A DNA stretch of 60,767 nucleotides, from the IMG/VR virus record IMGVR_UViG_3300033993_001964, positions 1 through 60,767 of that record; one strand, 5' to 3'. Position 1 is the first letter of the stretch. Every line of letters starts with the position of its first letter. This document shows positions 8,150 through 60,419 of this stretch, piece by piece. The position numbers and the translations under genes were made by a program. Below the pieces are notes generated by a model that saw only the letters and a program-made list of their open reading frames with translations, did not search any database and had not been told where the DNA came from. Source of the DNA: a virus (lineage: Duplodnaviria; Caudoviricetes).

Positions 8150-8161
8150 GAGACTTACCTC

Positions 8162-10678: not shown

Positions 10679-10685
10679 TCTTCAC

Positions 10686-41468: not shown

Positions 41469-41647
41469 TCGCCGCACCACTCCTCGATTAGTACTTGTGG
41501 CCATAGCGCGTCCACATTGCGCAGCTCGGCGTCCTCGAACACTGTTGGGGACGGCGCATGGCGCCTGCATTCCCCAAGCTCACTGTCGTCCGTCGCTCTG
41601 GAAAAAAACCTGCACGTCAGGCAGGCTTGCTCATGATCGCAACTCAT
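41432..41647 (-). CDS. Small Cys-rich protein
   Basis: CLTCRFF...GECRRHAP...WP......WCGEW; GGGAG RBS. Confidence 0.7.
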   Translation of the reverse strand: MSCDHEQACLTCRFFSRATDDSELGECRRHAPSPTVFEDAELRNVDALWPQVLIEEWCGEWEPKTATSSRV

Positions 41648-41691
41648 TGTGGTGCTCCCTGTCTGCTGCCACTAGATAAGCCAACGCTAAC

Positions 41692-41721
41692 ATTGTCTCC
41701 CGCCCAGTTTGGGGGTGTCAA
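41692..41721 (-). promoter_or_regulatory. Possible sigma70 promoter
   Basis: TTGACA-N18-GACAAT on the minus strand, intergenic, upstream of 41647. Confidence 0.4.
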
Positions 41722-41829
41722 CGCTCTGTAGTAGCGATTCTAACGAAATAGACAGGGTTGCCGCGATCAAGCATTCTTGGCAGCCGCCGAACGGGCATCC
41801 CTTCCCATTCGGACAGCTGCGCAGAATGC

Positions 41830-42186
41830 CTAGAACCCCACGAGCTCTTCTTCGTGGTTCTCGGAGCGGTCACGCTTGCGCCACCGCAGGCTCTTGCCAA
41901 CCTCGTTGGCCAGCAGGCGCAGCGACGTGCCAGTCGTGCCGTCCTTCTTCGTGTACTGCTCGAGCTGCAGGTTGCCGCGAATCACCACCCGGTCTCCCGG
42001 CTGAAGCGACTCGGCGACGATGTCGGCCTGCTCATCGAACACCACGACGTCGAGCCAGGTGGTCTGCTCTCCGGTTGGGGTCTTTGAGCTAGAGGCGACC
42101 GAGAAGTTCGCCATCTGCTTGCCGGTCTTGGTCATCCGCACCTCAGGCATGCGGCCTACGTTTCCTGTGACTGTGGCCTCAATCAT
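41830..42186 (-). CDS. ssb: Single-stranded DNA-binding protein
   Basis: VTGNVGRMPEVR, ANFSVA, TTWLDVVVF, GDRVVIRGNL, YTKKDG; acidic tail ending in F; AAGGAGG RBS. Confidence 0.92.
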   Translation of the reverse strand: MIEATVTGNVGRMPEVRMTKTGKQMANFSVASSSKTPTGEQTTWLDVVVFDEQADIVAESLQPGDRVVIRGNLQLEQYTKKDGTTGTSLRLLANEVGKSLRWRKRDRSENHEEELVGF

Positions 42187-42219
42187 GAGAGCCTCCTTGC
42201 GCTAGGGTTATCGAACTAG

Positions 42220-42233
42220 CGCACGGTTGTACA
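42220..42233. promoter_or_regulatory. Degenerate TGTAC-N4-GTACA-like operator upstream of ssb
   Basis: CGCACGGTTGTACA (2 mismatches), about 35 bp upstream of the ssb start. Confidence 0.3.
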
Positions 42234-42289
42234 CGCCTCAGGAGAAGCGCGCAAGGCCCCATTCGTCGTCGAACAGGAACCAGAACGGG

Positions 42290-42703
42290 CTAACCACCAA
42301 GTCCGACGGGGTTGCCACCTGGAGACTGCGGCTTACCGTAGCCCTTCCACATGGAGTTGTGGCGCATCTGGTTGCCGATGAACTTGTCCTGGCTGGCATT
42401 GGCCTGACGCACGTCTTTCCAGGAGTCATTGAGGTAGCGGTCGCCAGCGGCCTCGCCAAGAGGGTCATGGCCGTCACCAGCCACAGGCGGACGAGGCAGC
42501 AAGCTCGAGCTACCGGACGTCATGGCGCCAAGCACCGACTCACGGCCGGCTGGAGTGTGCAGCTGGCTGGCTGGCACCTGGCTGGGGTCCATGTCCAGGA
42601 CCATCGGGTCACCGTCGCCGGCGTGCATGTCCAGCGTCATAGGGCGATTAGCGTTCGTCAGGTCACGGATGCGGGACTCGGTGGTGGATTTGTTCGTTGG
42701 CAT
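42290..42703 (-). CDS. Hypothetical protein, first gene of the leftward arm
   Basis: AAGGAG RBS; preceded by a GACCCATAAA variant of the late motif (42721-42730). Confidence 0.6.
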   Translation of the reverse strand: MPTNKSTTESRIRDLTNANRPMTLDMHAGDGDPMVLDMDPSQVPASQLHTPAGRESVLGAMTSGSSSLLPRPPVAGDGHDPLGEAAGDRYLNDSWKDVRQANASQDKFIGNQMRHNSMWKGYGKPQSPGGNPVGLGG

Positions 42704-42944
42704 GGGGACTCCTTGCTTGTTTTATGGGTCGGGGCCTTTCGAAAACGGGAAAAAATCCAGGGGCTGCATTTACATGAGGGGCGGGCGCGAAAGGGGGGCT
42801 CGGGGCCTTTGATCTGTCGCCGTAAGTCCTTTGCCAGCGCGGGCTTGCGTTGTCGGACAAGGAACACGCGGTCGTGAAGGTGGCCCGAGCCAATTAAATC
42901 TGGGTCGCTCTTCCCCGCTTGCCCGCAGTTCGCGAATTGCGAAC

Positions 42945-42978
42945 GCCCCTGTTTTCAGGCACCGGCGAGTAACAGTGT
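42945..42978 (+). repeat. Early cassette motif copy 1 (degenerate)
   Basis: GCCCCTGTTTTCAGGCACCGGCGAGTAACAGTGT. Confidence 0.7.
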
Positions 42979-43029
42979 CAGCAGCAACCGCAGCACTTCG
43001 CTGAGGACTGACTGGCACGGAGGATTCGC

Positions 43030-43185
43030 ATGCTGTGCTGCAGCTGCTGTGGGAACGTCTTCGCCAACGAGGTCGCTGACCCGGCGTTTGTCTGCGACCT
43101 GTGCGATGCCGAGCGTCGTGAGGCGTACCTGGAAGAGATGAAGGACGCCGAAGACGACCCGTTTCCGGGAGTCGTCGATTGGTGA
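43030..43185 (+). CDS. Small Zn-finger-like acidic protein (51 aa, not in ORF track)
   Basis: GGAGG RBS; MLCCSCCGNVFANEVADPAFVCDLCDAERREAYLEEMKDAEDDPFPGVVDW. Confidence 0.6.
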   Translation: MLCCSCCGNVFANEVADPAFVCDLCDAERREAYLEEMKDAEDDPFPGVVDW

Positions 43186-43275
43186 GGGCTCGCGAGGCCG
43201 CCCAGTGACTTCGGTTGCTGGGCGAGCTCCTGCGCCTTTGCAGGCTGTTCGGGTCTTTCTCTTGGAGGATTGGAA

Positions 43276-43386
43276 ATGCTTTGGCTTCTACGCGCGGCGA
43301 TGCGTGCTGTGCTGGTCCTTGTGCTCTTGGACTGCGCCGCCAACGTGGTACTGGCGCTGCTCCGTGCTTGGGTCGCTTCACACTGA
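43276..43386 (+). CDS. Small hydrophobic peptide (36 aa, not in ORF track)
   Basis: GGAGG RBS; MLWLLRAAMRAVLVLVLLDCAANVVLALLRAWVASH. Confidence 0.5.
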   Translation: MLWLLRAAMRAVLVLVLLDCAANVVLALLRAWVASH

Positions 43387-43398
43387 AGTGACAGCAAA

Positions 43399-43432
43399 CC
43401 CCTTGTTTTCAGGGGTCGGCGAGTATCAGTAG
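43399..43432 (+). repeat. Early cassette motif copy 2
   Basis: CCCCTTGTTTTCAGGGGTCGGCGAGTATCAGTAG. Confidence 0.9.
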
Positions 43433-43528
43433 CAGGTCAGCGGCACCTCCCACCAACCGCATTTCCTGCTCAGTCTTTTAGTCGGCAGTCAGCCGGCGGA
43501 CTGGGCGGGAGTCTTGTGGAGGTGTCCC

Positions 43529-43951
43529 ATGTCCTTTCGTAAGGGTGACCTGTTTGTTGTCTCGTGTGCTTTGGTTGCGGTCGGGTTCATGGTCTCGATG
43601 TTCGTTGCGTCTGGTAGTGCCAACACGTGGCTCTACGGCGTCTCGGAGTCGGTGACCAGCTACCTGGCTGCACCACAGCGAATAGCTCGGCTCGAGGCTG
43701 AGGTCAAGGAGTGCGACGGCTTGCTGGCTGTGGCACGACGCGATCTCAAGTCGGCACACGAGCGGCTGGACTCTGATGCCACGCAGCACCGCCACGTGCT
43801 GGATGCTGCGAAGGTACAGATTGCTGTGGCTGAGGGGGAACGCGACCGGCTCTTTGCCGAGCTGGCTTCGCTGCGTTCCCGCCATGCCACGCTGTGCCAG
43901 CAGCTGCTCGAGCTGGGCAATGACGTGCCTAGTGTTCTGGCTGGAGAGTAG
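43529..43951 (+). CDS. Membrane-anchored coiled-coil protein
   Basis: GGAGGTG RBS; N-terminal hydrophobic helix followed by heptad-like region. Confidence 0.75.
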   Translation: MSFRKGDLFVVSCALVAVGFMVSMFVASGSANTWLYGVSESVTSYLAAPQRIARLEAEVKECDGLLAVARRDLKSAHERLDSDATQHRHVLDAAKVQIAVAEGERDRLFAELASLRSRHATLCQQLLELGNDVPSVLAGE

Positions 43952-44002
43952 CCCGAAACCCGCTTCGGCGGGTCTCACCGTGATGCGGTGACTGATGAGG
44001 GC
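43951..44002 (+). ncRNA. Type II hammerhead ribozyme
   Basis: GCCC-GAAA-CCCGC-UUCG-GCGGG-UC^-UCACCG-UGAUG-CGGUGA-CUGAUGA-GGGC: all conserved core residues and three perfect stems; predicted cleavage after C43974. Confidence 0.92.
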
Positions 44003-44035
44003 AGTTCCCCTGTTTCTTGGAGGGAGGAATAAAAG

Positions 44036-44317
44036 ATGACGCTCGTGACCCTGAGTGCAGCTCAAGGCTGTGCCATCCTGGCTGTGATAGCCAGCGTGTA
44101 CGTGACCTGGAAGATGGCCGCGTCTGCCCGAGACCGGGTCGACTGGCTCAAGGATGACATGGACGACCGCGAGTCTGCCATGTCCGTGATGGTAGACGGC
44201 ATGAGTCAGAAGGTTGACGCCCTGTCTGCTCAGGTCGAGCGGCTGGCGGCTAAGTTGCAGGACCGCACGCTCGATGCGGCCCGTGTCCGGATGAAGAAGA
44301 TCAAAGGAGGTGCCTGA
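44036..44317 (+). CDS. Membrane-anchored coiled-coil protein
   Basis: GGAGG RBS; N-terminal hydrophobic helix, coiled-coil C-terminus. Confidence 0.75.
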   Translation: MTLVTLSAAQGCAILAVIASVYVTWKMAASARDRVDWLKDDMDDRESAMSVMVDGMSQKVDALSAQVERLAAKLQDRTLDAARVRMKKIKGGA

Positions 44318-44658
44318 TGCCATACGCTGATGCCAAGTACCCCAAACCCAAGCAAGAAAGAGGTGAGTCAATGCACGACTGCCCACTGTGTGGCGCACCC
44401 AAGCCCAACGAGGACTGGGACTGGTCCAAGTCTGTGTCGGTGATGGTGGATAGCGGCGAGCGGATCATCAGGCTCGCAGACAGCGACGCGCACTCGCTGT
44501 ACGCAATGCTTAGTAAGTCGTGGAGAGAGGACGGCAAGCCAAAGGGCGACTGGCGGGACGGAGTGCTCGACCTGCTGTTCGCTCAGTTTGGGATAGACCA
44601 AAGGATGATCGACGCCCAGCTGGACGACGAGCCGGAGGACCAAGCGAAAACCCCCTGA
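44317..44658 (+). CDS. Hypothetical protein with CPLCG motif (start may be 44371)
   Basis: TGATG coupling; its stop codon lies inside cassette motif copy 3. Confidence 0.65.
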   Translation: MPYADAKYPKPKQERGESMHDCPLCGAPKPNEDWDWSKSVSVMVDSGERIIRLADSDAHSLYAMLSKSWREDGKPKGDWRDGVLDLLFAQFGIDQRMIDAQLDDEPEDQAKTP

Positions 44659-44684
44659 TTTCAGGGGCCGGCGAGTAGTAGTAG
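44651..44684 (+). repeat. Early cassette motif copy 3
   Basis: CCCCCTGATTTCAGGGGCCGGCGAGTAGTAGTAG. Confidence 0.9.
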
Positions 44685-44694
44685 ACGGTTCGAT

Positions 44695-44729
44695 AGCCCT
44701 GCCGGGCACCCTACCCGGCGGGGCTTTTT
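44695..44729 (+). terminator. Stem-loop plus U tract after motif copy 3
   Basis: AGCCCTGCCGGG...CCCGGCGGGGCT TTTT. Confidence 0.65.
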
Positions 44730-44753
44730 CATTTCTCTAACCCGGAGTTTCAC

Positions 44754-45140
44754 ATGGCTATGCCAGCGTGGCCCCCTTACCTGGTGATGCAGTATCGGTG
44801 CGGAAAGGTCAAGAAGAATCGTGTCTACGCTCTGGTCCGCACCAAGAGCGAGGCAAAGGAGCTCGTGATCTCTGCGTCAGTCAAGCGACGCAGGGAGAAC
44901 GAGTTCTACGTAGTGATCGACGGACCCAAGTCCGCACGAGACCCAGACCACACGTACTTCGTCGGTGCTCTGTGCCATGCCGGCCGTGAGATTGTTCTCA
45001 TGGAAGGCGAGGAGCATCCGATCCTCATGCCTGTCGAGGTCGCTCGGATGTACGAGGGCGATGAGTCGGTCAAGTTCCTGACCCAGAATCGCCAGGCCCT
45101 TTCCGCTCCCGCACAGCAGGAGGAGGGGCAGCAGGAATGA
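44754..45140 (+). CDS. Hypothetical protein
   Basis: GGAG RBS; coupled to the next gene. Confidence 0.7.
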   Translation: MAMPAWPPYLVMQYRCGKVKKNRVYALVRTKSEAKELVISASVKRRRENEFYVVIDGPKSARDPDHTYFVGALCHAGREIVLMEGEEHPILMPVEVARMYEGDESVKFLTQNRQALSAPAQQEEGQQE

Positions 45141-45391
45141 GACTGCACACGGTCACCGCACGAGGGGTGGCAGTGTCATTCCTCATGGACGAGTTGAGAT
45201 CTTACGACGACGCGCTCGATGCGCTAGTCTCCAGCAAGGACGGAATGGGCGAGTTCACTGACGCCCACATGGAATCAGTGACCAGTCTCTACACCAAGAT
45301 CAGGACCGCAATCCTGATCGCAACAGAGGGGGAAACCCTCAGGAGGGAAACGCGTGAGCGACTCACTTACGACTGTGAGCCTGACGAATGA
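45137..45391 (+). CDS. Hypothetical protein
   Basis: ATGA overlap with the upstream gene. Confidence 0.6.
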   Translation: MRLHTVTARGVAVSFLMDELRSYDDALDALVSSKDGMGEFTDAHMESVTSLYTKIRTAILIATEGETLRRETRERLTYDCEPDE

Positions 45392-45578
45392 CCAGCTCGA
45401 GGTCGTGCTGGACGCACTGGATCAGTACCGGCAGGAGAACCACGACCTGCTGATGCTGTCCGACTTCGACGACGAGACGTTTGGCGTAGTCGCTGGGCGT
45501 GTCGAGATCGCAGTCAATTTGATGCGTGATCTGGGCGTGGACATCGGCACCGACTCTGAAGAGGAGGTGGTCGAATGA
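45354..45578 (+). CDS. Small acidic hypothetical protein
   Basis: AGGAGG RBS, GTG start; very Asp/Glu-rich. Confidence 0.65.
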   Translation: MSDSLTTVSLTNDQLEVVLDALDQYRQENHDLLMLSDFDDETFGVVAGRVEIAVNLMRDLGVDIGTDSEEEVVE

Positions 45579-45946
45579 ACGTAGCCACAGGGAATCGTGT
45601 GACCGCACAGGATCTTGTGCGTGTCGAGAAGCTGGAGGCTCAGGTCGGCGTGCTTGAGCTCGCGGCGCAAGAGGTTGTTGCCAGCATTCACAACCTGCGT
45701 ACTGACCAGCTTGCGAGTGCGAAGCGCTGCATAGCCACAGGCACGAAGGTGTTTGCCAAAGAGGAAGACACCCCAGTGCAAGAGCTCGAGCGAGAGATCG
45801 CCTTGCTCAGGGCCCGCCTGCAGTGCGAGCTGTGGGAGGGATGGTGGACTGAAGTTGAGCAGGAGTTGGCCAAGCTCAACGCTGCGTTCGCTGAGTTCCG
45901 GGCAACGAAGAGCCTTGCGTCAGTGCTCGATTGCTGCAGCGATTGA
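45575..45946 (+). CDS. Coiled-coil hypothetical protein
   Basis: GGAGGTG RBS, ATGA overlap; stop abuts motif copy 4. Confidence 0.7.
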   Translation: MNVATGNRVTAQDLVRVEKLEAQVGVLELAAQEVVASIHNLRTDQLASAKRCIATGTKVFAKEEDTPVQELEREIALLRARLQCELWEGWWTEVEQELAKLNAAFAEFRATKSLASVLDCCSD

Positions 45947-45979
45947 CCCTTGATTTCAGGGGTCGGCGAGTTAATTCGG
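45946..45979 (+). repeat. Early cassette motif copy 4
   Basis: ACCCTTGATTTCAGGGGTCGGCGAGTTAATTCGG. Confidence 0.85.
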
Positions 45980-46022
45980 GAGGCCGGTGACCACGTTGGC
46001 GCCGGCCTCCCTTTTCTTTTTT
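45978..46022 (+). terminator. Stem-loop plus U tract after motif copy 4
   Basis: GGGAGGCCGG...CCGGCCTCCC TTTTCTTTTTT. Confidence 0.7.
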
Positions 46023-46035
46023 GGGAGGTGTTCCG

Positions 46036-46356
46036 ATGGGGAGTTACGTGTTCAGTCTGTATGTCGTTGAGCTGGATCCCGCCGTGCTTGATCACGGCCG
46101 AGTCCGGCGAGCCAACCCTAAGGGTGGTGCCCGCTGCCTGTATGTAGGCAGCACTGCCCATGACCCCGAGTATCGGTACGCCCAGCACAAGCAGGGTGTA
46201 CATGCGAACAGGGGATACGTTACACAGTACGGACGCGGGCTGAGGACGGACCTCAGCGATGGCCGCACGTACACAACCAGGCAGGACGCCGAGCGGGCTG
46301 AGGCACAGCTTGCCGAGCAACTCAGGAAGGAGGGCTACTCAGTATGGTCACGGTGA
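46036..46356 (+). CDS. GIY-YIG nuclease family protein
   Basis: SLYVVEL...CLYVGST..PEYRYAQHKQG...AERAE..LAEQLRKEGYSVW; GGAGGTG RBS. Confidence 0.8.
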   Translation: MGSYVFSLYVVELDPAVLDHGRVRRANPKGGARCLYVGSTAHDPEYRYAQHKQGVHANRGYVTQYGRGLRTDLSDGRTYTTRQDAERAEAQLAEQLRKEGYSVWSR

Positions 46357-46742
46357 AACAGGTGCCGCCAAAGGAAGTGCTAGACGAGGTGATGGACAAG
46401 GCAATCCGTGCACATCGCTTTGCCTCGTACTTGCACGGTCGCTCCGCTGCAGATGTTGTCAGGTCACAGCCAATGCTCAAGGCTGCGTTTGCCGAGAGGT
46501 CCCAGCTGTCTCGTCTCAGAAACGAGCGCAGTAATTACTGCGAGTGCCCTGACTGCATTGCAGATGGACGTCACGCAGAGGACCTTGCCTTGATGGACGC
46601 CAAGTCTGCGCTGGCGTATCGAAATCTTCGCCGCAGCCTTGCTGAGCTACAGCACGTGCTGACTCGCGCTAAAGATGAGATCGACGAAGCGGTCAACCTG
46701 CTTCAAGTTCAGTCCCTGCTCTCCGTTTGTCCAGACCAATAG
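46344..46742 (+). CDS. Hypothetical protein with CxCxxC motif
   Basis: YCECPDC; overlaps the upstream stop. Confidence 0.6.
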   Translation: MVTVKQVPPKEVLDEVMDKAIRAHRFASYLHGRSAADVVRSQPMLKAAFAERSQLSRLRNERSNYCECPDCIADGRHAEDLALMDAKSALAYRNLRRSLAELQHVLTRAKDEIDEAVNLLQVQSLLSVCPDQ

Positions 46743-46750
46743 GAGGCACG

Positions 46751-46996
46751 ATGGACGAAGACCCAATCGGTGCATCGCTACTAGCATCAGCAGAGTTGGC
46801 ATACCAGCTGCGAGTGCTCGTATCTGACGTGATCTACGTACACCAGCGCGGCTACTCAGCCGACGAGGTTGGCAACGTGCTTGACTACGCAGAGGAACAC
46901 TGCCATCGGATCCTGTCGGAACTCAACGCCGTGCAGGACCACTTGGCTGTCGTGAAGGCAATCGACCGCATGGCCGACGTGTCCTGCGGCGACTGA
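46751..46996 (+). CDS. Hypothetical protein
   Basis: AGGAGG RBS, ATG 46751. Confidence 0.65.
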   Translation: MDEDPIGASLLASAELAYQLRVLVSDVIYVHQRGYSADEVGNVLDYAEEHCHRILSELNAVQDHLAVVKAIDRMADVSCGD

Positions 46997-47002
46997 CGTA
47001 AA

Positions 47003-47036
47003 CCCCTTGTTTTCAGGGGTCGGCGATTACTTGTAG
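47003..47036 (+). repeat. Early cassette motif copy 5
   Basis: CCCCTTGTTTTCAGGGGTCGGCGATTACTTGTAG. Confidence 0.9.
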
Positions 47037-47076
47037 AGGGCTGGCAGCGCCGGGCTGTCAGTCCTCTTTTCTTTTT
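47035..47076 (+). terminator. Stem-loop plus U tract after motif copy 5
   Basis: AGAGGGCTGGCAGC...GCTGTCAGTCCTCT TTTCTTTTT. Confidence 0.65.
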
Positions 47077-47101
47077 CCCGGCGTGCTTAGGGAGGTGTCC
47101 C

Positions 47102-47305
47102 ATGTCGAGCGAGAACCGTGAGTCGAAGGCCCCAGCTGTGGCGGCCATGCAGTTCATCCGTTTGGATGAGTGCCGTGACCGGCTGTGTGCCGGCCCGGTG
47201 GAGGTTGATCGGTCTGCCTTTGTCCGTGCGTTGGCTCACTGCACCAACGGCGAACGACGCGAGGTGGCTGACATGCTCCTCGCCGAGAAGTTCGGGGAGC
47301 TGTGA
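47102..47305 (+). CDS. Hypothetical protein
   Basis: GGAGGTGTCCC-ATG leader identical to that of 43529. Confidence 0.65.
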   Translation: MSSENRESKAPAVAAMQFIRLDECRDRLCAGPVEVDRSAFVRALAHCTNGERREVADMLLAEKFGEL

Positions 47306-47472
47306 TGAACTACAACTTCAGCGAGTTGCTGGGTCTTATTGACCCGGCGTTCAAGCTGGCGTTCGGCCTGGCCGGGATGGTGCAAACCCACCCGGACCAG
47401 GTCACTGCCTGCTGTGCCCTGTATATCGCAGGTGCCAGGTTTCTCACGGTCCTCCGCCGCCGGCGGATCTGA
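47305..47472 (+). CDS. Small hydrophobic protein with basic tail (55 aa, not in ORF track)
   Basis: TGATG coupling; MNYNFSELLGLIDPAFKLAFGLAG...LRRRRI. Confidence 0.5.
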   Translation: MNYNFSELLGLIDPAFKLAFGLAGMVQTHPDQVTACCALYIAGARFLTVLRRRRI

Positions 47473-47531
47473 CCAGACGCATGGGTCGTGCGACCCACGT
47501 CAATCTCTTCTCTCCATTCTGGAGGTGTTCG

Positions 47532-47765
47532 ATGGCTGATCCTGTCACGGATGATGGCCCGAAGGTGATCGACGTCTTGCTTGATAGCAAGGTTGTCGGC
47601 CAGGTATTCGGCGTGGGTCGACGGTTCTACTTCATCCTCACCGACGAGCGCGACGACAAGCCGCGCGGTTGGTATCGCAATGCCGACGCTGCCGTCGAGG
47701 CGGCATGGCATCAGGCGAAGGTGCTCGAGCAGGCAGAGTTCTGGGAGATCATGCTCGACACCTGA
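47532..47765 (+). CDS. Hypothetical protein
   Basis: GGAGGTG RBS, ATG 47532. Confidence 0.65.
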   Translation: MADPVTDDGPKVIDVLLDSKVVGQVFGVGRRFYFILTDERDDKPRGWYRNADAAVEAAWHQAKVLEQAEFWEIMLDT

Positions 47766-47789
47766 TCTAGGCAAAGTGCAGCACTGTGC

Positions 47790-47803
47790 TGTACGTTAGT
47801 ACA
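47790..47803. promoter_or_regulatory. TGTAC-N4-GTACA palindromic operator
   Basis: TGTACGTTAGTACA, intergenic, upstream of 47876. Confidence 0.55.
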
Positions 47804-47810
47804 CCTCCCG

Positions 47811-47857
47811 GCAGGCGGGCCGCTTCAGTCGCAAGGCTGGGCGGCCCGTCTGCTTTT
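47811..47857 (+). terminator. Long stem-loop with GCAA tetraloop plus U tract
   Basis: GCAGGCGGGCCGC..CAGTC-GCAA-GGCTG.GCGGCCCGTCTGC TTTT. Confidence 0.65.
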
Positions 47858-47875
47858 CACACTGAAAGGGAACCG

Positions 47876-48715
47876 ATGACGATTCAGATTGCTGGCTCTG
47901 CGGCGATTGCCTTCGGGCAGAACAAGCCGCACCTCCGCTCACTGTTGCAGACAGCCTGCGACAATCAGGGGTGGGGCAAGATGGTCAACCGCCCACCGTC
48001 CAAGCACAGCTCGCTCGAGCGTGCCATGCAGACGGTGTGCAAGGGGCTCTCGATCGAGGCCGACGCGGTGTTATCCGTGCGGGCACTCGAGCCTGAGCTT
48101 TCGTTCGAGGCGACGCGTGTCCGCAAGGGCACGACGCGCAACACGGTGACGCACCTCGCTTCCGCTCAGGTGGACGAGGCTGCTGGCCGTGTGACACTGG
48201 TCAGCTGGAACCCTCAGGCCGACAGCCTTCAGCTGTCTACCGATTTGGATGCGGAGTACCAGAGCAACCTGCTCTATGTAACTCCGGCCCAGCTGCACGG
48301 TGTCATCGCCAATGTAGTAGCCAAGCTCAAGGGCGTGGAGCTGGGCGGACGGAATGTCTTCTACATCCCACAGTCTGGGGTGCAGACGTTCAGTCAGTGG
48401 CAGTCCGATGCCCAGATCTCTAGCTACCACACCGTGCCTCTCGAGACTGCCAAGTCTCCGGACACAGTGAAGCACATCCTCGACCAGCTCAACGAGGAGG
48501 TGACGCGAGAGGGTGCGGCAGTGCTAGAGGCAGCGGCCTCTGGTTCTGTCGAGCCGCGATCGGCGAAGGCTATGGCCAAGCGTGCTCGTGCACTAGTCGA
48601 CAAGATCAAGTCGTACGAGTCGGCGCTTGGTCAGTGCCTTGACTGGATGCGTGAGCCGCTCGAGCAGGCAGAGAGTGCACTGGCCGTCACCACCCTGCTG
48701 TCGGTGTCAGCATGA
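47876..48715 (+). CDS. Hypothetical protein of the type found beside AAA/VWA modules (DUF3150/DUF6744-like)
   Basis: GVELGGRNVFYIP motif and helical C-terminus (KIKSYESALG); gene context. Confidence 0.55.
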   Translation: MTIQIAGSAAIAFGQNKPHLRSLLQTACDNQGWGKMVNRPPSKHSSLERAMQTVCKGLSIEADAVLSVRALEPELSFEATRVRKGTTRNTVTHLASAQVDEAAGRVTLVSWNPQADSLQLSTDLDAEYQSNLLYVTPAQLHGVIANVVAKLKGVELGGRNVFYIPQSGVQTFSQWQSDAQISSYHTVPLETAKSPDTVKHILDQLNEEVTREGAAVLEAAASGSVEPRSAKAMAKRARALVDKIKSYESALGQCLDWMREPLEQAESALAVTTLLSVSA

Positions 48716-48930
48716 GATACCGAGCCGGAGACAGGGTGACTTTGGTTGCGATGGGTGCTGACATTGACCCGGTCCCTTCGGGCTCTGAGGGGACGGTGAC
48801 TCACGTAACAGAACTGCAGTTCGCGGGCGAAGACCAGCTGCAGGTAGGCGTCCAGTGGGACAACGGCCGAAGCCTGTCGTGCATAGTCCCTCCGGACGTC
48901 CTTGTTCGGACAGATCCATACGCCCCCTGA
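48712..48930 (+). CDS. DUF4314-like protein
   Basis: GDRVTLVAM..D.DPVPSGSEGTV...VQWDNGRSL; stop lies inside motif copy 6. Confidence 0.75.
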   Translation: MRYRAGDRVTLVAMGADIDPVPSGSEGTVTHVTELQFAGEDQLQVGVQWDNGRSLSCIVPPDVLVRTDPYAP

Positions 48931-48956
48931 TTTCAGGGGCCGGCGATTACTAGTAG
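48923..48956 (+). repeat. Early cassette motif copy 6
   Basis: CCCCCTGATTTCAGGGGCCGGCGATTACTAGTAG. Confidence 0.9.
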
Positions 48957-49006
48957 AGGGCAGCGCGTGCTGCTCCGTTCTTTCAGTTTCTAACCAGGAG
49001 ATTTCT

Positions 49007-50119
49007 ATGGCCACTCATACGGCCAACGAGTCCTTGTTCATTGCATTGCAGGTCGTTCCGTCCATTGTGTGGGGCGGCACCGGCGTTGGTAAGACGACGG
49101 TCATCGGCCAGTTGGCGAAGGCGCTCAAGCGTAACTTCCACCTGCTGATTGGCTCGACTCACCTGCCTGAGGATTTCTCCGGTTACCCGGACGCTGACCG
49201 CGAGGCCGGCGTGATCCGCATGATGCCCACCTCGTGGGTGCAGGACTTCAAGGACGGGCTCGGGTTCCTGTTGCTTGACGAGTTCACGTGCGTGCCGCCG
49301 ACGACGATGGCTGCAGAGCTGTCGCTCATCACGGAACGACGCGTTGGTGACGTGACTCTGCCAGAGTCAACGATCATCGTGGCTGCTGCCAATCCTCCGG
49401 AGCTTGCTCCAGGTGGCAACGCACTGCCGCCGTCGATGCGCAGTCGGTTCTTCCATTACCGGTGGCAGGTCGACCGCAACGAGTTGTTCAAGGGTTATCG
49501 GGCTGGCCTTGAGTGGTCGGCTCCGTCGTTCCCGACAGTGCCCGCAGATCATCGCCAGCTGTATCCCAAGTACGGCGCGTTGGTCGAGGCGTTCCTGCGG
49601 TCGGCTCCCGACTGCATGGAGAAGCTGCCGGACAGCGACGAGTGCCTGAGCTTTCCTAACCCACGCACGTGGTCGTACGTGGTCAAGGTGCTCAGTGCTG
49701 CCGAGTCGGTCGGGCACCAGCCCGGCAGCGGCGTGTTCCGCGAGCTGATCACTGGCTGCGTTGGCGACGCTGCCGGCGGTGAGTTCATGCGGTACATGGC
49801 GACGCTGGATCTGGTCAACCCAGCTGCGATCCTCGATGGCAGCGAGAAGTTCAAGTACAAGCCCGGCCGCCCGGACCTGTGCATCTGCTTGCTCACTGGC
49901 CTGGTCAAGGAGCTCCGCTCCGACACCGACCAGGAGCGTTGGACGCGTGCCGCTCACGCGTTCATTGAGATCGGAGAGAACGAGATCGAGACGTTCCTCT
50001 CCCAGTTCAAGCCGCTCTGGGCGACCGTGTCTCAGGGTGGTGTTCGACCGGACGGATGGATGCCGGCTACTGGCCTCATGAACAAGCTAATGAAGCTCGT
50101 GCCGCAGGGCCTCAACTGA
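49007..50119 (+). CDS. MoxR-like AAA+ ATPase
   Basis: WGGTGVGKT Walker A, PEDFSGYP, LLLDE Walker B, AAANPP sensor 1, LPPSMRSRF, FPNPRTW; AGGAG RBS. Confidence 0.9.
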   Translation: MATHTANESLFIALQVVPSIVWGGTGVGKTTVIGQLAKALKRNFHLLIGSTHLPEDFSGYPDADREAGVIRMMPTSWVQDFKDGLGFLLLDEFTCVPPTTMAAELSLITERRVGDVTLPESTIIVAAANPPELAPGGNALPPSMRSRFFHYRWQVDRNELFKGYRAGLEWSAPSFPTVPADHRQLYPKYGALVEAFLRSAPDCMEKLPDSDECLSFPNPRTWSYVVKVLSAAESVGHQPGSGVFRELITGCVGDAAGGEFMRYMATLDLVNPAAILDGSEKFKYKPGRPDLCICLLTGLVKELRSDTDQERWTRAAHAFIEIGENEIETFLSQFKPLWATVSQGGVRPDGWMPATGLMNKLMKLVPQGLN

Positions 50120-50146
50120 TTCTTACTCTCACGAAAGGAGGTGGCC

Positions 50147-50515
50147 ATGGGCCACGACGTTAAGTGGATTGACGGTGGTGATCAGAAGGACTATCCGGGC
50201 GGCATCGCTCTCCGCAATGCGGACGATGCCAAGCAGATCCTTCTCCAGACCGTGCGGCAGATCTGTCCAGACTGCCCGCCGGGTGACTTCAACAGCCGTG
50301 CTCGCGTGCTTGCTCAGGCGATCACGATCCTGACGGCGACTGTCCTTCGCAGTGGCACGACCGCCATTGCCGAAGGCAGTGCCACTGTCGAGGAGATTGC
50401 AATGTCCAGTGCATACGCCACGCACATGCTGTGCCAGGCGGTGGCTGACTTGCTGACCCAAGACGTGGAGATCCTGGTTTCTGACCGACTCAACCCCGAG
50501 TTCTCATCGAACTAG
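50147..50515 (+). CDS. Hypothetical protein between AAA and VWA genes
   Basis: AGGAGGT RBS, ATG 50147. Confidence 0.7.
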   Translation: MGHDVKWIDGGDQKDYPGGIALRNADDAKQILLQTVRQICPDCPPGDFNSRARVLAQAITILTATVLRSGTTAIAEGSATVEEIAMSSAYATHMLCQAVADLLTQDVEILVSDRLNPEFSSN

Positions 50516-50525
50516 AGAGGAGCCG

Positions 50526-51890
50526 ATGACACCAAGAGACAAGCTGGCTCAGGGCCGGGTGCGTACTTTCGAGTACGCCCCCTACCTGGCCAGCTACATC
50601 TATTCGCTCAAGCAGCAGGAGACGCCAGGCTCTGGCACCTGCGGCGTGACGAAGGACGGGATCCTTTGCTGGGATCCCAAGTTTGTTGACAGCCTCGATC
50701 GGGACTCACTTGCTTACGTGATCCTGCACGAGGCTTTGCATCTCATCTTCCGCCACCACGTGCGGGCCGGTGAGGTGTACGGCGAGACGCCTGACCCCCA
50801 GTTGCAGCTTGCGATGAACATCGCCGGCGACCTGGTGATCGAGCAGACGCTGGGTTTCATGCGGCCACTGCGTCCGCCTGGAGCTGTGTATCTGGGGGCG
50901 CCGTGCCCTCAGTTAGGTATCGAACTCAACTTCCCGCCCAACCTGGACATGCTCCAGTACTACGGGCTCATCACCTCAGCGTTACGCGACAGGCCCAAGC
51001 GGCCGGGTGGTAGTCCAGGCGACGAGCAGGAAGACGAGAAGGATGGCAGTGACGAGGGCGATGGGGTCGGCAACAGCCGGGTCCAGAACAAGTCACCTCA
51101 AAAGCAGGGCGGCAAGAAGGGCTCATCCAACCAGCCCAACGGCCGTTCTGCTGCGTGCCAACCCGGATCGGGTGGCAGTGCAGGTGACGGGGTACGACGC
51201 CCGTACGAAGCGGAAGACGAATCTTGGCAGGCCTTCCAGGAGCTGGTGAATGCCGGCAACCTAGAACAAGCCATCGCCAAGCACGAGGCTCAGCATCCAG
51301 GCAGTGTTCCCGGCTTCATCAAGGAGCAGATCAGACACTTCCTCAGACCACAGCCCGATCCGTTCGAGCACCTACGCAGTGTCGTGGCAAGCGCCACTGC
51401 TAGTCCGCTCGGCGGGAGGGCGGCTTCGTACCGCAGGCTGTCGCGTAAGCAGCCAGCGGACATCGCCAGACTGCGTGGCCTGCTTTCAACGCAGGCTTCA
51501 GCAGTTGTGATCGTGGATACGAGCGGGTCGATGGGTGATCGGGAGACAAAGGAGAAGGCACTTGAGGTAGTGGCGAAAGGACTACGCAAGCTCAAGTCCG
51601 TCAAGGTTGTCTGTGCCGACACCAGGATCACCAGTTCGCAGCGACTCACAAGCGTTGCGAACTTCGAGTGGACGGGCGGCGGCGGCACCGACATGGCCGC
51701 AGCCCTCGAGGAAGTTGACCGGACCGACAGACCAGACAGCATCGTGCTCATCACTGACGCGATGACTGGCTGGCCTGCTCGGCAGACGCGGGCCAGGGTG
51801 GTCGTTGCCCTCACCTGCGACAGCTGCTACCGCGAGAGTATCCCTCGCTGGTGCAAGACAGTTCCCCTTTACCAAAGGAGCGACGCATGA
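50526..51890 (+). CDS. DUF2201-like metallopeptidase plus VWA domain protein
   Basis: ILHEALH (HExxH), NIAGDLVI, disordered linker, VIVDTSGSM MIDAS, GGGGTDM, LITD. Confidence 0.9.
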   Translation: MTPRDKLAQGRVRTFEYAPYLASYIYSLKQQETPGSGTCGVTKDGILCWDPKFVDSLDRDSLAYVILHEALHLIFRHHVRAGEVYGETPDPQLQLAMNIAGDLVIEQTLGFMRPLRPPGAVYLGAPCPQLGIELNFPPNLDMLQYYGLITSALRDRPKRPGGSPGDEQEDEKDGSDEGDGVGNSRVQNKSPQKQGGKKGSSNQPNGRSAACQPGSGGSAGDGVRRPYEAEDESWQAFQELVNAGNLEQAIAKHEAQHPGSVPGFIKEQIRHFLRPQPDPFEHLRSVVASATASPLGGRAASYRRLSRKQPADIARLRGLLSTQASAVVIVDTSGSMGDRETKEKALEVVAKGLRKLKSVKVVCADTRITSSQRLTSVANFEWTGGGGTDMAAALEEVDRTDRPDSIVLITDAMTGWPARQTRARVVVALTCDSCYRESIPRWCKTVPLYQRSDA

Positions 51891-52216
51891 GTCGTCCGTC
51901 GAAGTCGGGCATGACGCCCGCACTGTTTACCCAGCTCTACATGGAGAGCTGGAAGGCCGGGCATTCTGTCCGGCAGTTTGCGGAACGCATCAAGACCACA
52001 GTGGGGCGTGTCCACTCGCGGGTCCAGTACTACCGCAAGAAGGGCGCTGCCCTGCCTGACCTTCGCAGGGTTCCGCCCGGCGGGTCGAGCGGCAATGCCC
52101 TGCCGGTCGCTGACATGAACGCGATCATCTCGCGTGCGATGGAGTATAGGGGCACGGTTCCGGACGCTGTCCGCCCGGCCCCGAGCAACGGCCGATTGGT
52201 CGGCAACGTGTCCTGA
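51887..52216 (+). CDS. Small putative helix-turn-helix DNA-binding protein
   Basis: SVRQFAERIKTTVGRVHSRVQYYRKKG; AAGGAG RBS, ATGA overlap. Confidence 0.6.
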   Translation: MSRPSKSGMTPALFTQLYMESWKAGHSVRQFAERIKTTVGRVHSRVQYYRKKGAALPDLRRVPPGGSSGNALPVADMNAIISRAMEYRGTVPDAVRPAPSNGRLVGNVS

Positions 52217-52223
52217 TTCATTT

Positions 52224-52275
52224 GCCTGGAGGGTGGGGCTGCGTATGCCCTGCCCTCCAGGCTCTCTCTTTTTTT
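52224..52275 (+). terminator. Intrinsic terminator-like hairpin
   Basis: GCCTGGAGGGTGGGGC...GCCCTGCCCTCCAGGC then TCTCTCTTTTTTT. Confidence 0.7.
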
Positions 52276-52286
52276 GGAGATACAGC

Positions 52287-53294
52287 ATGCTTGTGATGGA
52301 ATCTGCTGCACCAGAAAAGGTACAGCTCAACAAGAAGATCTACGGGTGGGGCGAGCTCGATGCCGCCGTCACCGACAAGGCTCGCCTTACGAAAGAGACG
52401 CCGCTTAGCCAAGAGGCTTTGGCTCGGTGCCTCAAGTTCTTTGGTCACGCTCGGATGGCCCAGATCGAGGAGCGAGTGCTGGCTGTTGCCTGCGGAAGCC
52501 ACATCAGCCTCGTGTACACCCACACCTCTCCAGGATGCGGGCTCGAGAGCCTCGAGATTCAGCGCCATGTCAATGTCTATCCGGCACAAGGCGGTCGCAC
52601 CTCGTACGAGATAGACATGAAAGTCAACGGGTACTTTGCCAACAAGCACCTGCCGATGCGTGCAAAGGATCGCGGCGGCAAGTCCATATACCGCAATACC
52701 AAGTGGTACTACGGGCAGAGCGGCATGTACCAGCCCGGAGTAGGTCCGCTGTACTGTGACATCGGCCCCACCTGCCAGGCCGCAACGCACGAGGAGATCG
52801 TGCAGAAGATCACGGCTGCCGACTGGATCGCTGAGTCGTGGCGCGACAGGGCCGTGTCGTTCCTCGACAAGGTGACGGCGGCAGTCGCACCCTTCGGCGA
52901 TGCGGTTGTTCGGTTCGAGGTAGACGGCTTGGACCGCCAGAAAGATGGCGATCCTATTTACGACTTCTCCCTGCAGTCGTGGGTCAGCGGGTACGAGACT
53001 GTTATCCGCAGTGAGTATGGTGCCCTTGTGAAGATCAAGCACCCGGCACGCAAGGACTCTGGAGGGTGGGAGCACCAGCCGGACCTGGTCGTGGCCGTGA
53101 CTGGCCCGCCAGCTGGCTGGCAGGATCCAGAAGATCTTCTGTACATGGTGTCAAGGGCTCACGGTGGCGGAGGTCGTGTGCCGTTGCGCGACCGCGCGCC
53201 ACAGGGGACAATGAACGCCATCTACCGGAAGCAATCGTCCATCGTGGACGTTGTCCGGCAGTGGTGCGGTGAGCACATCAACATCCCTGCATAA
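52287..53294 (+). CDS. Hypothetical protein (335 aa)
   Basis: GGAG RBS, ATG 52287; no recognised motif. Confidence 0.7.
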   Translation: MLVMESAAPEKVQLNKKIYGWGELDAAVTDKARLTKETPLSQEALARCLKFFGHARMAQIEERVLAVACGSHISLVYTHTSPGCGLESLEIQRHVNVYPAQGGRTSYEIDMKVNGYFANKHLPMRAKDRGGKSIYRNTKWYYGQSGMYQPGVGPLYCDIGPTCQAATHEEIVQKITAADWIAESWRDRAVSFLDKVTAAVAPFGDAVVRFEVDGLDRQKDGDPIYDFSLQSWVSGYETVIRSEYGALVKIKHPARKDSGGWEHQPDLVVAVTGPPAGWQDPEDLLYMVSRAHGGGGRVPLRDRAPQGTMNAIYRKQSSIVDVVRQWCGEHINIPA

Positions 53295-53304
53295 GGAGCA
53301 ACTC

Positions 53305-53550
53305 GTGAAAGTTATTGTCCACATCCGAAAGGCAGTGGAGGTTGAGGTGCCTGACTGCCTGGTGCCCACGCGCCAGGACAGGTACAGCAACCACGCCATG
53401 CAAAGCTTTGCCATCGACTCGGCACTTGCCACGCTGCACGACAGCCACTGGGAAGAGCGTGAGGGATGGGGAGGCAGGAAGTACACCCAGCACGGTGCGT
53501 TGGGATACATCGAGTATCCGAAGAAGGACCTCACGTCCGGAGCAATCTGA
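53305..53550 (+). CDS. Hypothetical protein
   Basis: TAAGGAG RBS, GTG start, TGATG coupling to the recombinase. Confidence 0.65.
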   Translation: MKVIVHIRKAVEVEVPDCLVPTRQDRYSNHAMQSFAIDSALATLHDSHWEEREGWGGRKYTQHGALGYIEYPKKDLTSGAI

Positions 53551-54281
53551 TGGCCACCGTGTTTGGGTACGGCCGTCACTCCACCGACAAGCAGGGCCTC
53601 ACCGAAGAGGCTCAGCAGGTCAAGGTAGAGTCGTACATACGGTCCACCCTGCCGCACCTAGCGTACGGCGGGTGGCTGTATGACTCGGCCGTGAGTGGGA
53701 AGAAGCCTCTGTTCGAGAGGCCGAAAGGGCGGAACTTACTTGCGCTCGCACAGCCAGGAGATCACCTGGTGTGGGCCAAGCTAGACCGCGCCTTTCGTTC
53801 TGTTGTCGACGGCGCCAGCACTCTCGCAATGCTGGCACACAAGGGCGTGTACGTGCACAGTCTCGATCTGGGGCTGGACACAAGCACTGCCGTTGGCCGT
53901 TGCGTATGCACGGTCATGCTCGCATTCGCCGAGCTTGAACGTGAGTACGCAAGTGAGCGAACCCAAGAGGCGTTGGGTGCGAAGAAGCGAGCCGGCCTGC
54001 CCTATGGAGGGGGCGTCCCGATCGGATGGAAGAAGATCGGAAGGGGAAAGGACGGCCGGTTTGTTCCTGACCCAGTTGAACGTAGCCAGGCGATAGCCAT
54101 CGCCGAGATGAGGGCTGAAGGATCCAGCCAGGAAGACATAGTCACTGAGCTTCGTGGACTACGCCGGCCCTGCGGCCGGGAGTGGCACCGCGAGTCAGTG
54201 AGGAGAGCTATCCTGGCGGCAAGTCTTCAGTTCCCAAAAGCTGTGACAGAGTCCGAACTGCAATCTTTAGTCGCGACCTGA
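53550..54281 (+). CDS. Serine recombinase (resolvase/invertase family)
   Basis: VFGYGRHSTDKQ (catalytic Ser), DSAVSG, RP, GDHLVWAKLDRAFR, AFAELERE..SERT..AL, PIGW. Confidence 0.9.
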   Translation: MATVFGYGRHSTDKQGLTEEAQQVKVESYIRSTLPHLAYGGWLYDSAVSGKKPLFERPKGRNLLALAQPGDHLVWAKLDRAFRSVVDGASTLAMLAHKGVYVHSLDLGLDTSTAVGRCVCTVMLAFAELEREYASERTQEALGAKKRAGLPYGGGVPIGWKKIGRGKDGRFVPDPVERSQAIAIAEMRAEGSSQEDIVTELRGLRRPCGREWHRESVRRAILAASLQFPKAVTESELQSLVAT

Positions 54282-54735
54282 CCAGCTTCTCGTTCAGCTG
54301 AAACACTACGGCGATCTCACGGATCGACATCCCGTAGACATATCTGCTCGCAACCAACCGCCTCTCTGCGGCAGGCAATACGCTCAGGGCGGCCGGTAGC
54401 ATTTGGCTCCGGCCGCTCTGACGTTGCGCCATTCTTTCTGCGAGCTCGTACGGCACCCGGTCAGGGCTGTCGTACTTCAACCTCTGGCTTCGAGCCAGCT
54501 CTTTTAGCAACGCGTTCCTGATGGCCGACGAGAAGTAGGTAGTGATCTTGCTCTTCGTCTCGTCGTACGTCTGGGCTGCACGGCAGATCGCCATGTACGC
54601 CACTGACTGTCCGTCAATGCTACGCAGCTTCCGCTTGATTCCCGGATAGGACTTGCCCATAGCGTTGATGACTACCGGCACTATGGCCATAGCCTCTTCC
54701 GCTAACGCGCGCTCCCGATCCGTCATTGGCCGCAT
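54208..54735 (-). CDS. Phage-encoded sigma70-family RNA polymerase sigma factor
   Basis: Region 2 (AYMAICRAAQTYDETKSKITTYFSSAIRNALLKEL) and region 4 (ALSVLPAAERRLVASRYVYGMSIREIA...VRSRLKIAVRTL). Confidence 0.85.
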   Translation of the reverse strand: MRPMTDRERALAEEAMAIVPVVINAMGKSYPGIKRKLRSIDGQSVAYMAICRAAQTYDETKSKITTYFSSAIRNALLKELARSQRLKYDSPDRVPYELAERMAQRQSGRSQMLPAALSVLPAAERRLVASRYVYGMSIREIAVVFQLNEKLVRSRLKIAVRTLSQLLGTEDLPPG

Positions 54736-54763
54736 GCTGTACCCGCACGGTTCACGCGCGTTC

Positions 54764-54792
54764 TGCGCGTACGTACAGTGTACCTGCGTACA
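54764..54792. promoter_or_regulatory. Tandem TGTAC-N4-GTACA operators upstream of the sigma gene
   Basis: TGCGCGTACGTACA (54764-54777), G, TGTACCTGCGTACA (54779-54792); five GTAC within 54739-54791. Confidence 0.55.
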
Positions 54793-54801
54793 TGCCTGGC
54801 C

Positions 54802-54834
54802 GTGAGCTTAGTGGCTACCAGTCCACTAGCTCAC
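54802..54834 (-). terminator. Stem-loop between the LamG operon and the sigma gene
   Basis: GTGAGCT(T)AGTGG / CCACTAGCTCAC inverted repeat overlapping the stop at 54826. Confidence 0.45.
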
Positions 54835-55143
54835 AGGGCTAGGGGACTCTGGCAGCAGGGTAATGGCGTCAGCCAGCGGGATGACTTCGATCTGCTGCAT
54901 CATCTCTGGCGTTACAAACGCAAACCCGCCCGCCAGAATCCCGCCTTCTCCCACCTCGCTGAGAACGTCGCCGCAGAGCATCCAGCGGCCATCGGTGAGT
55001 TGCCGACCGGCTGGAACGTGGCGAGGGTCGCCGTGCTCCTCCTGCACGCCGTACAGCGCGACGGCGATCTCGTAGGGGTAGACCAACGCAAGGTCTTTGC
55101 AGTCGGCGTAGGGCACTGGGAGTGTGAGTTCGGAGAGCAGCAT
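54826..55143 (-). CDS. Hypothetical protein (possible chaperone/partner of the LamG protein)
   Basis: TGATG coupling; QLTDGRWMLCGDVLSEVGEGG. Confidence 0.7.
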   Translation of the reverse strand: MLLSELTLPVPYADCKDLALVYPYEIAVALYGVQEEHGDPRHVPAGRQLTDGRWMLCGDVLSEVGEGGILAGGFAFVTPEMMQQIEVIPLADAITLLPESPSPVS

Positions 55144-60064: not shown

Positions 60065-60419
60065 TCCAGGTGTCTCCCGCCGCGATAATGCGGTCCACTA
60101 CCTGGTTTATGTCCCCAGCCGGGCGGCAGTCGGCGAGGATTTTGAGCCTCACAGACCGGGTGCTGAAGCCCAAAGTCTCGCAAACTTCGGGCAAAGACAG
60201 CTCGGACTCGGGCTCCCAGAACACCCAGCGCCAGGCTATGGCAGCTGAGTACATGCGGTCGCTAGGCCCGGACTTAATGCGTACGTGGATCCCGCGCCTG
60301 GACCTGGCTGAGATCCACCGGCATAGCCTGACGGTGTTGGCCATCATGGCCACGAGAAAGTCCCGCCACTTCTGCTCGAGCTCGTCAGGAGGATTCCATT
60401 CCTCTCCGTCGATGATCAC
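59862..60419 (-). CDS. Hypothetical protein, possible DNA-binding (3' part overlaps next gene)
   Basis: GTGA coupling to upstream gene; AWRWVF....LSLPEVCETLGFS. Confidence 0.5.
   Translation of the reverse strand: MIIDGEEWNPPDELEQKWRDFLVAMMANTVRLCRWISARSRRGIHVRIKSGPSDRMYSAAIAWRWVFWEPESELSLPEVCETLGFSTRSVRLKILADCRPAGDINQVVDRIIAAGDTWNAKPKRKAPRPCREVRVDWRGLGSSRHCGSHVPGPRCNESPEDAGAGRTVDRRRKAGRDGTGGQRDR
60106..60115 (-). promoter_or_regulatory. GGGACATAAA motif, candidate late promoter (copy 3)
   Basis: About 40 bp upstream of ATG 60064, at the head of the peptidase/LamG operon. Confidence 0.45.

Follow-up and report, generated by a model that had tools for sequence, protein, structure and literature searches.

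Locus Organization and Anatomy of the Repeated Motif

The window considered here, 60,767 bases of DNA from a virus of the Caudoviricetes (IMG/VR record IMGVR_UViG_3300033993_001964), carries a 34-bp motif that recurs six times in an arm of small genes and is discussed below as a putative promoter joined to a hairpin. The window represents the complete virus record (CheckV completeness 99%), a point on which the initial annotation of this DNA required correction. Leftward genes run from 42703 to 36 and from 60727 to 55146 and encode a helicase, an ERF protein, an exonuclease, tail proteins, a portal protein, terminase, a capsid protein, SSB, and three giant unannotated proteins, whereas rightward genes extend from 43030 to about 55190. 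The rightward arm opens with 17 small open reading frames (ORFs) at 43030-48930 on the plus strand, nearly all of them ORFans with family matches that are weak or at the DUF level only, which are distributed over five units of 2, 3, 4, 3, and 5 genes. It closes with a conserved block encoding DUF6744, DUF4314, an AAA_5 ATPase, a VWA/DUF2201 protein, and a small serine recombinase (53550-54281, plus strand), whose nearest solved structures are Gin invertase and gamma-delta resolvase.

All six copies of the motif lie on the plus strand, starting at 42945, 43399, 44651, 45946, 47003, and 48923, exactly as first described, and differ from the proposed core by 3, 0, 0, 1, 0, and 0 mismatches from copy 1 to copy 6. 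The core has no match on the minus strand and none in 100 shuffled sequences, and allowing up to four substitutions reveals nothing further on either strand of the 60,767 bases. No other sizeable repeat family is present in the genome; successive copies of the motif are spaced 454, 1252, 1295, 1057, and 1920 b apart. Copies 2 to 6 are each associated with the stop codon of the preceding gene: the stop lies 12 nucleotides (nt) upstream of copy 2 (43399-43432) and 6 nt upstream of copy 5 (47003-47036), a TGA at 45944-46 abuts copy 4 (45946-45979), and the TGA codons that end genes 44317-44658 and 48712-48930 fall within copy 3 (44651-44684; TGA at 44656-58) and copy 6 (48923-48956; TGA at 48928-30), the latter of which is followed by the conserved ATPase operon. 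The association with an upstream stop, initially claimed for every copy, does not extend to copy 1 (42945-42978), a degenerate version (CAGGCACC) that lies in the sole divergent intergenic gap (42704-43029), 61 nt ahead of the first gene and with no plus-strand gene upstream. The consensus likewise holds with exceptions, as GGCA replaces GGGG in copy 1 and the terminal GTAG is kept in only four of the six copies.

Each copy is followed by a second, unrelated hairpin (z-scores from -1.5 to -4.7), and then by a ribosome-binding site (RBS) and two to five small genes, in agreement with the initial annotation. The motif occupies the slot between stop codon and Shine-Dalgarno sequence of an ORFan-rich, hyperplastic region. 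On the plus strand, the leader hairpin after copy 1 (42975-43018) lacks a T-run and begins with GTGTC, a start found in the first-copy leaders of all eight lineages aligned, and hairpins without a T-run follow the first copies of three lineages. Copy 2 is followed by a long leader with two hairpins (43432-43509) that is conserved in related contigs. Terminator-like structures are present after copy 3 (hairpin plus TTTTTCATTTC, 44695-44725) and copy 5 (hairpin plus TTTCTTTTTC, 47035-47067). After copy 4, a hairpin with a T-run (45978-46011) belongs to a hairpin family with the conserved loop CCACGTTGG, and folding of the leader after copy 6 gives a weaker hairpin and then CGTTCTTTCA (48956-48975). 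A simple terminator screen is passed by three of the second hairpins of the window. Taking 39 distinct copies together, a hairpin with dG of -10 or below follows 36 of them, compared with 176 of 300 random windows, and a hairpin with at least five T in the next 10 bases follows 17, compared with 7 of 300. In the 20 copies with a full leader folded, the distance from GGCGA to the hairpin is 2-9 nt, and in 15 of them it is 7-9 nt. The hairpin family with the CCACGTTGG loop also occurs in contigs L063, L080, L081, L101, and L108, with one compensatory stem change and different genes downstream, and the leader at 43432-43509 includes a conserved stretch, ACCGCATTTCC, common to several lake contigs.

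Distribution in Relatives and Lineage-Specific Cores

An exact scan of viral contigs returned 30 stretches in 22 distinct contexts, comprising 13 with the whole module and nine with an isolated core in unrelated sequence. The relatives that share the module, referred to here as lineage A, include G001, a complete genome of 61.6 kb with terminal repeats and about 70% DNA identity in shared genes (six copies); G002, with about 90% identity to the window (six copies); and the fragments G004, G005, and G003, with four, three, and one copies, respectively. Within each relative, all copies lie on one strand. A scan of metagenomes produced 43 stretches, which together with the earlier genomes gave 43 distinct contexts, seven of them unrelated metagenome loci, and further lake contigs carry the module. 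Across 38 distinct copies, one contiguous block, cCC.TG.TTTCAgGGGtcGGCGAgT, holds the information; after it come a weaker A/T-rich stretch and, in many cases, TAG.

More distant relatives, for which a single-protein search found nothing, were reached with an alignment of the ATPase encoded after the last copy, which was used to fetch 80 loci together with the 7 kb upstream of each. The motif, unchanged or in closely similar form, is present where the ATPase is 66-79% identical. At 52-60% identity (about 25 loci), it is absent and 3-10 copies of CCGCTGCGGAGTC are present instead (5-10 per 7 kb in the sister lineage), and two further loci have GATCCGGAGTC or GATGCGGAGTC as the core. The layout is common to all: a stop codon (often the TGA of TGATTTCCCC), the core, a T/G-rich spacer, a hairpin, commonly with a T-run, an RBS, and a start codon. 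Between lineages, TGATTTC and G[CG][CG]GAGT are shared and the middle of the block differs. The 5' dyad noted in the initial annotation folds in all six copies of the window but is not conserved in the sister lineage, where only a 9-nt palindrome is present. The stem of the motif shows no conserved pairing across lineages, in contrast to the four compensatory pairs of a neighboring hammerhead (see below), which fits a site that would be read as sequence and not as structure. The overlap with the sister lineage amounts to only four arm families and includes no ORF of units 1-4.

The sister core measures 13-15 nt (n = 120) and is partly palindromic (CCGC-T-GCGG), intergenic, and present in one orientation, features that raise the alternative that the core is the binding site of a phage regulator, acting either as an operator or "stoperator" that blocks elongation or as a loading site for a Q-like antiterminator. 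PMC5721134 and PMC9283540 use the same terms for stoperators. Lineage-specific cores would suggest co-evolution with a phage protein, and a terminator-like hairpin 7-10 nt past the site would be sensible under regulated passage of the polymerase. Nevertheless, Pfam and PHROGs searches of 69 ORFs found no repressor, helix-turn-helix, or Q-like protein; the copies are limited to one 6-kb arm instead of being genome-wide; and the hairpin keeps its fixed distance even at copy 1, where there is no T-run. Such a scheme would, moreover, still depend on promoters, one per unit or one for the whole arm, and no sigma-70-type promoter is seen. We therefore regard a regulator site as improbable, though it keeps some weight. 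The stoperators of cluster A mycobacteriophages differ from the present sites in the same respects, as no repressor was found here, the sites are limited to 42945-48956, and a hairpin stands at a fixed distance behind each one.

Several additional elements occur near the motif or at comparable positions. A perfect inverted repeat, GTTCGC-N5-GCGAAC (42928-42944), operator-like in appearance, abuts copy 1; it is found in G002 as well as the window and is missing from G001 and G005. In the same divergent gap, the block CGGGAAAAAATCCAGGGG at 42746-42763 is kept in all four lineages aligned; read on the minus strand, ahead of the leftward genes, it starts with the motif-like CCCCTGGATTTT. In locus L140, a distant relative whose ATPase is 36% identical, positions 1500-1750 hold at least eight GGGTTCACAG repeats within 230 b that resemble replication-origin iterons.

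A Putative Promoter and 5' Hairpin Cassette

The initial annotation held that the motif does not follow a sigma-70 consensus, and no sigma-70-type site indeed occurs on the plus strand of 41500-56000; the one sigma-70-like site lies on the minus strand at 41721-41692, and no A(-11)/T(-7) hexamer common to the copies is apparent by eye. Without sigma-70-like plus-strand sites, no recurrent candidate start signal other than the motif is present in the arm. We favor the reading in which every copy, joined to a hairpin, directs the start of one short early transcription unit, a logic resembling that of the promoter early stem-loop (PeSL) elements of T4-type phages. The case for a promoter draws on the position, strand, and fixed spacing of the motif, which hold at copy 1 as well; on its contiguous, lineage-specific block devoid of structural covariation; and on the A/T-rich stretch that precedes a G-rich start at the hairpin foot. 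Sigma-54, extracytoplasmic-function (ECF), FliA, and Bacteroidetes-type promoters were also considered, and by eye they fitted none of the alignments.

From this anatomy we infer promoter activity, a start site, roles for the hairpins, and a part in recombination. A sequence-specific reader, other than the host machinery that recognizes the sigma-70 consensus, would bind a core of about 24 bp (CCC-YTG-WTTTCAGGGGYCGGCGA-KT), the DNA would open in the seven to eight A/T-rich bases after the core, and RNA would start from the G at the hairpin foot. The hairpin would then stand at the 5' end of the message and might stabilize the mRNA. At internal copies, the hairpin and T-run would halt polymerases arriving from the unit upstream, so that each group of ORFans would form an insulated cassette. 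The combination of different cores with the same layout in sister lineages suggests that the reader is probably lineage-specific and phage-borne, or else a host factor that varies with the host.

Several points weigh against this promoter-hairpin reading. The promoter call is drawn from sequence anatomy, a T-run hairpin starting at +1 should also terminate the cassette's own transcripts, and the sister core of 13-15 nt has the size of an operator. In addition, searches for a reader were negative: Pfam and PHROGs gave no RNA polymerase, sigma factor, or repressor among the 69 ORFs, a D.D.D motif of the polymerase kind was present in 0 of 52 ORFs scanned, and the three giant proteins (1862, 838, and 1146 amino acids) likewise lack a D.D.D motif and have no sequence match in the PDB. 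The 1146-amino-acid protein is unlike the N4 mini-vRNAP (hhalign probability 0.2%), and the one lead for it comes from language-model features, which liken it (0.95) to a cluster of LPD38-bearing injected proteins. As the ORFs of units 1-4 are unconserved between lineages, an early-made reader is not encoded there. Owing to the missing reader, the self-terminating arrangement of hairpin and T-run, and the operator-sized sister core, our confidence in the favored reading remains evenly balanced between acceptance and doubt.

A more far-reaching proposal is that the motif is the promoter of an unrecognized transcription system, with a large uncultured group of freshwater phages importing its own specificity factor or polymerase; we consider this improbable. 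The imported factor may be among the giant virion-type proteins, and each lineage would then possess its own promoter "dialect", as do T7, T3, and SP6, with no known polymerase fold detectable by sequence. The genes for the 1146-, 838-, and 1862-amino-acid proteins lie adjacent at 4712-16274 on the minus strand, without family assignment, and their products may be injected virion proteins. The 838- and 1862-amino-acid proteins appear, from their sequences, to be of low complexity, and the family of the 1146-amino-acid protein comprises 1,904 representative clusters in metagenomes, with no match in Pfam, PHROGs, PDB profiles, or cultured phages (50,697 phage records).

A scan for an exact 20-mer of the motif, with one genome per species, gave 11 single hits, about the number estimated for chance, and none in an array. 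They include one copy per genome between tRNA-Pro and tRNA-Ser in two metagenome-assembled genomes (MAGs) of Gemmatimonadota (L049/L051, 401-420) and one copy between rpsG and fusA in Pseudoxanthomonas helianthi (L050, 401-420). Since no hit falls in an array, mimicry of a clustered regularly interspaced short palindromic repeat (CRISPR) is unlikely, and the scan identifies no host. The only hint of the host, a weak one, comes from a partial ATPase homologue that carries a Betaproteobacteria MAG label. The DNA of the window is present in lake and freshwater metagenomes, has no DNA match among the 50,697 phage records, and encodes a terminase 22% identical to that of Arthrobacter phages. The motif strings are absent from the literature text searched, apart from one unrelated primer, and a keyword search for similar elements returned nothing. 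A further gene of this genome, at 60419-60727 on the minus strand, matches the N-terminal domain of a MazZ-like dATP/dGTP diphosphohydrolase (E 1e-19), a match that may point to altered nucleotide use.

Comparison with Known Systems

In PMC2839356 and PMC4122927, PeSLs of T4-type phages are described as a promoter plus a stem-loop terminator between ORFans. The modules reported here resemble them in lying between the upstream stop codon and the next RBS, in their many copies within an ORFan-rich plastic region, and in the joining of a presumed start signal to a stem-loop that may terminate or attenuate transcription (17 of 39 copies with a T-run). Differential ORFans adjoin the modules in both cases, all five gene differences seen here touching a module. 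The differences are equally clear: the -35/-10 elements of sigma-70 promoters are absent here, conservation extends over one contiguous, lineage-specific block of 24 nt, the strong hairpin comes after this block instead of lying within the promoter, and the phage is unrelated to T4. PeSLs are further characterized by mini-circles that form through exchange between adjacent elements, and the contigs examined here showed no clean joint of that kind. The initial view of a PeSL-like directional regulatory cassette therefore stands with respect to its intergenic position, its ORFan-rich arm, and its departure from sigma-70 promoters, but not in its integron-like and N4-type components.

The promoters of phages T7, T3, SP6, and K11 differ in the middle of the block, and related lineages of the present group differ there as well. 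Further likeness to the T7 group is seen in the compact, contiguous, promoter-sized block and, for promoters accompanied by 5' stem-loops or RNase III sites, in the succession of an A/T-rich stretch, a G-rich start at the hairpin foot, and an RBS. On the other hand, Pfam and PHROGs searches detected no gene for a single-subunit RNA polymerase here, and the copies are confined to the early arm and absent from late genes. The T7 promoter, spanning -17 to +6, and the layout of N4 promoters are given in PMC4496689. N4 early promoters share with the motif a low copy number, restriction to the early region, and a small GC-rich inverted repeat in the conserved block. However, the stem of the motif is 6 bp with a 4-nt loop about 24 nt from the presumed start, as opposed to 5-7 bp with a 3-nt loop at -11 in N4, and the arm is not at the genome end in the complete relative with terminal repeats. 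The suggestion of an N4-type hairpin promoter finds no support: the sister lineage lacks the dyad, and searches revealed no virion RNA polymerase.

A Candidate Hammerhead Ribozyme and RNA-Level Alternatives

A candidate type II hammerhead ribozyme is located at 43951-44004 on the plus strand, between genes 43529-43951 and 44036-44317 and directly after the stop codon of the former. Its core is complete (CGAAAC, the GUC cleavage triplet, and CUGAUGA), with three stems of which stem II is open, and its Rfam score of 30 bits lies under the gathering score of 37. Among five distinct copies from four genomes, pairing is maintained in 75 of 75 cells, and four pairs in two stems have changed on both sides. 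The hammerhead is also found in G001 (two copies), G002, G004, G005, and L108, and a model built from these copies gave eight matches, all at lineage A loci. In PMC3088659, hammerheads that flank phage genes are proposed to cut long phage transcripts into gene-length messages, an idea with which the present candidate is consistent. The candidate points to the use of RNA-level punctuation in this arm.

Another alternative is that the motif acts at the RNA level within one long early transcript, either as a processing or stability signal, with the A/U-rich linker cut between hairpins, or as a nut/put-like antitermination element; in this scheme it would be the protein-mediated counterpart to the self-acting hammerhead. 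Hammerheads occupy equivalent slots: ahead of gene family F01, the window has the hammerhead where G001, G002, and G005 have a motif module. The element stands just ahead of terminator-like hairpins, and upstream transcripts should thus reach it. In addition, the dyad of lineage A folds, and one pair varies as C-G, U.G, or U-A among the copies and contig L108. Covariation is nonetheless limited to this single wobble pair, in a test that is weak because the searches fixed most stem bases, and the hairpin is unconserved in the sister lineage. The linker of G001-type copies (GCTCTTA / GTTCTTTG) recalls what we take to be the boxA consensus, whereas the linkers of the window are not boxA-like; on that assumed consensus, a boxA-like linker in G001-type copies only, together with an unconserved hairpin, distinguishes the motif from lambda nut, which combines boxA with a conserved boxB hairpin and an N-like protein. 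Furthermore, copy 1 has nothing upstream from which to be separated, the motif matches no Rfam family at E of 5 or below, and pairing at long range between the core and the stretch beyond the T-run is not recurrent. An RNA-level element thus appears unlikely, and other roles, such as nick sites, account for the weight not assigned to any of the readings considered here.

Cassette Shuffling and Recombination

Gene-family order is kept across the window, G002, G001, and G005, and it is the modules that shift relative to the families. Besides F01, family F03 is an example, coming first behind a module in the window and second in G001, and hairpin families travel with the core to different genes. 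A small protein encoded at 46036-46356 on the plus strand, with a weak GIY-YIG match, is kept in lineage A, and its position with respect to the motif is not the same in the window as in G001.

The initial annotation envisaged an integron-like accessory array and proposed that breakpoints between related genomes would fall in the motif. Comparison of the window with G002 identified seven structural differences with 14 ends, of which four lie in genes, two in the divergent gap, four at motif-bearing junctions, and four at junctions without a motif. Two of these differences have their right end at the 5' edge of a motif, one begins immediately past the copy 1 leader, another is an RBS-to-RBS indel containing a gene, motif, and hairpins, two are intragenic, and one concerns the divergent gap. 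A variant in lake contigs lacks gene 48712-48930 and has its right end at copy 6. The expected pattern is thus seen for some ends, which coincide with the motif 5' edge, and is contradicted by others at motif-free junctions, RBSs, and gene interiors. For distant relatives, an island of conservation may by itself account for many of the loose ends at motif edges. Overall, the breakpoint pattern makes the motif a plausible homology patch and does not establish it as a dedicated recombination site.

For the proposal that the copies are sites of the serine recombinase in an integron-like array, the hypervariable ORFans between copies may be cited alongside the conservation of the arm-end recombinase in 26 of 29 sister-lineage loci, the dyad of 2 x 7 bp around TT in the lineage A core, and the three gene differences that end at a motif 5' edge (43388-43403, 44306-44650, and 48719 to 48926). 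Six active direct repeats would, however, cause loss of the arm, the sister lineage lacks the dyad, gene F09 inserted in G002 lacks two flanking copies, and the motif-bearing indel spans RBS to RBS. Ends at motif-free junctions are as frequent as those at motif junctions. No clean copy-to-copy joint was found in contigs, where two between-copy joints have sides of 24-29 nt or other letters between them. The recombinase gene begins 4.6 kb past the last copy, and only weak inverted repeats were found in a search for an invertible segment near it. Compared with integron attC sites, sequence instead of structure is conserved here, the recombinase is of the serine type, and no site-to-site cassette events are seen. 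With breakpoints mixed and no clean excision joint in lake contigs, an integron-like array driven by the serine recombinase is highly improbable. Under the promoter-hairpin reading, the identical repeats of 24-34 bp and the shared hairpin families would instead provide homology patches for general recombination by the ERF protein and exonuclease, by which neighboring ORFans would be swapped.

Implications

If the copies are promoters, widespread uncultured lake phages would start their early genes with signals not accounted for by any known sigma factor or phage polymerase, and the lineage-specific cores would offer a direct handle on the reader. In that case, the modules and hammerheads would further indicate that the plan of a regulatory cassette plus ORFan, by which plastic early regions are built, arose independently of T4-type phages and from other parts. 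Should the copies prove to be RNA elements or regulator sites instead, a new repeated control element would have been defined. Either way, the copies mark transcription-unit boundaries in genomes whose gene content is otherwise about 80% unannotated.

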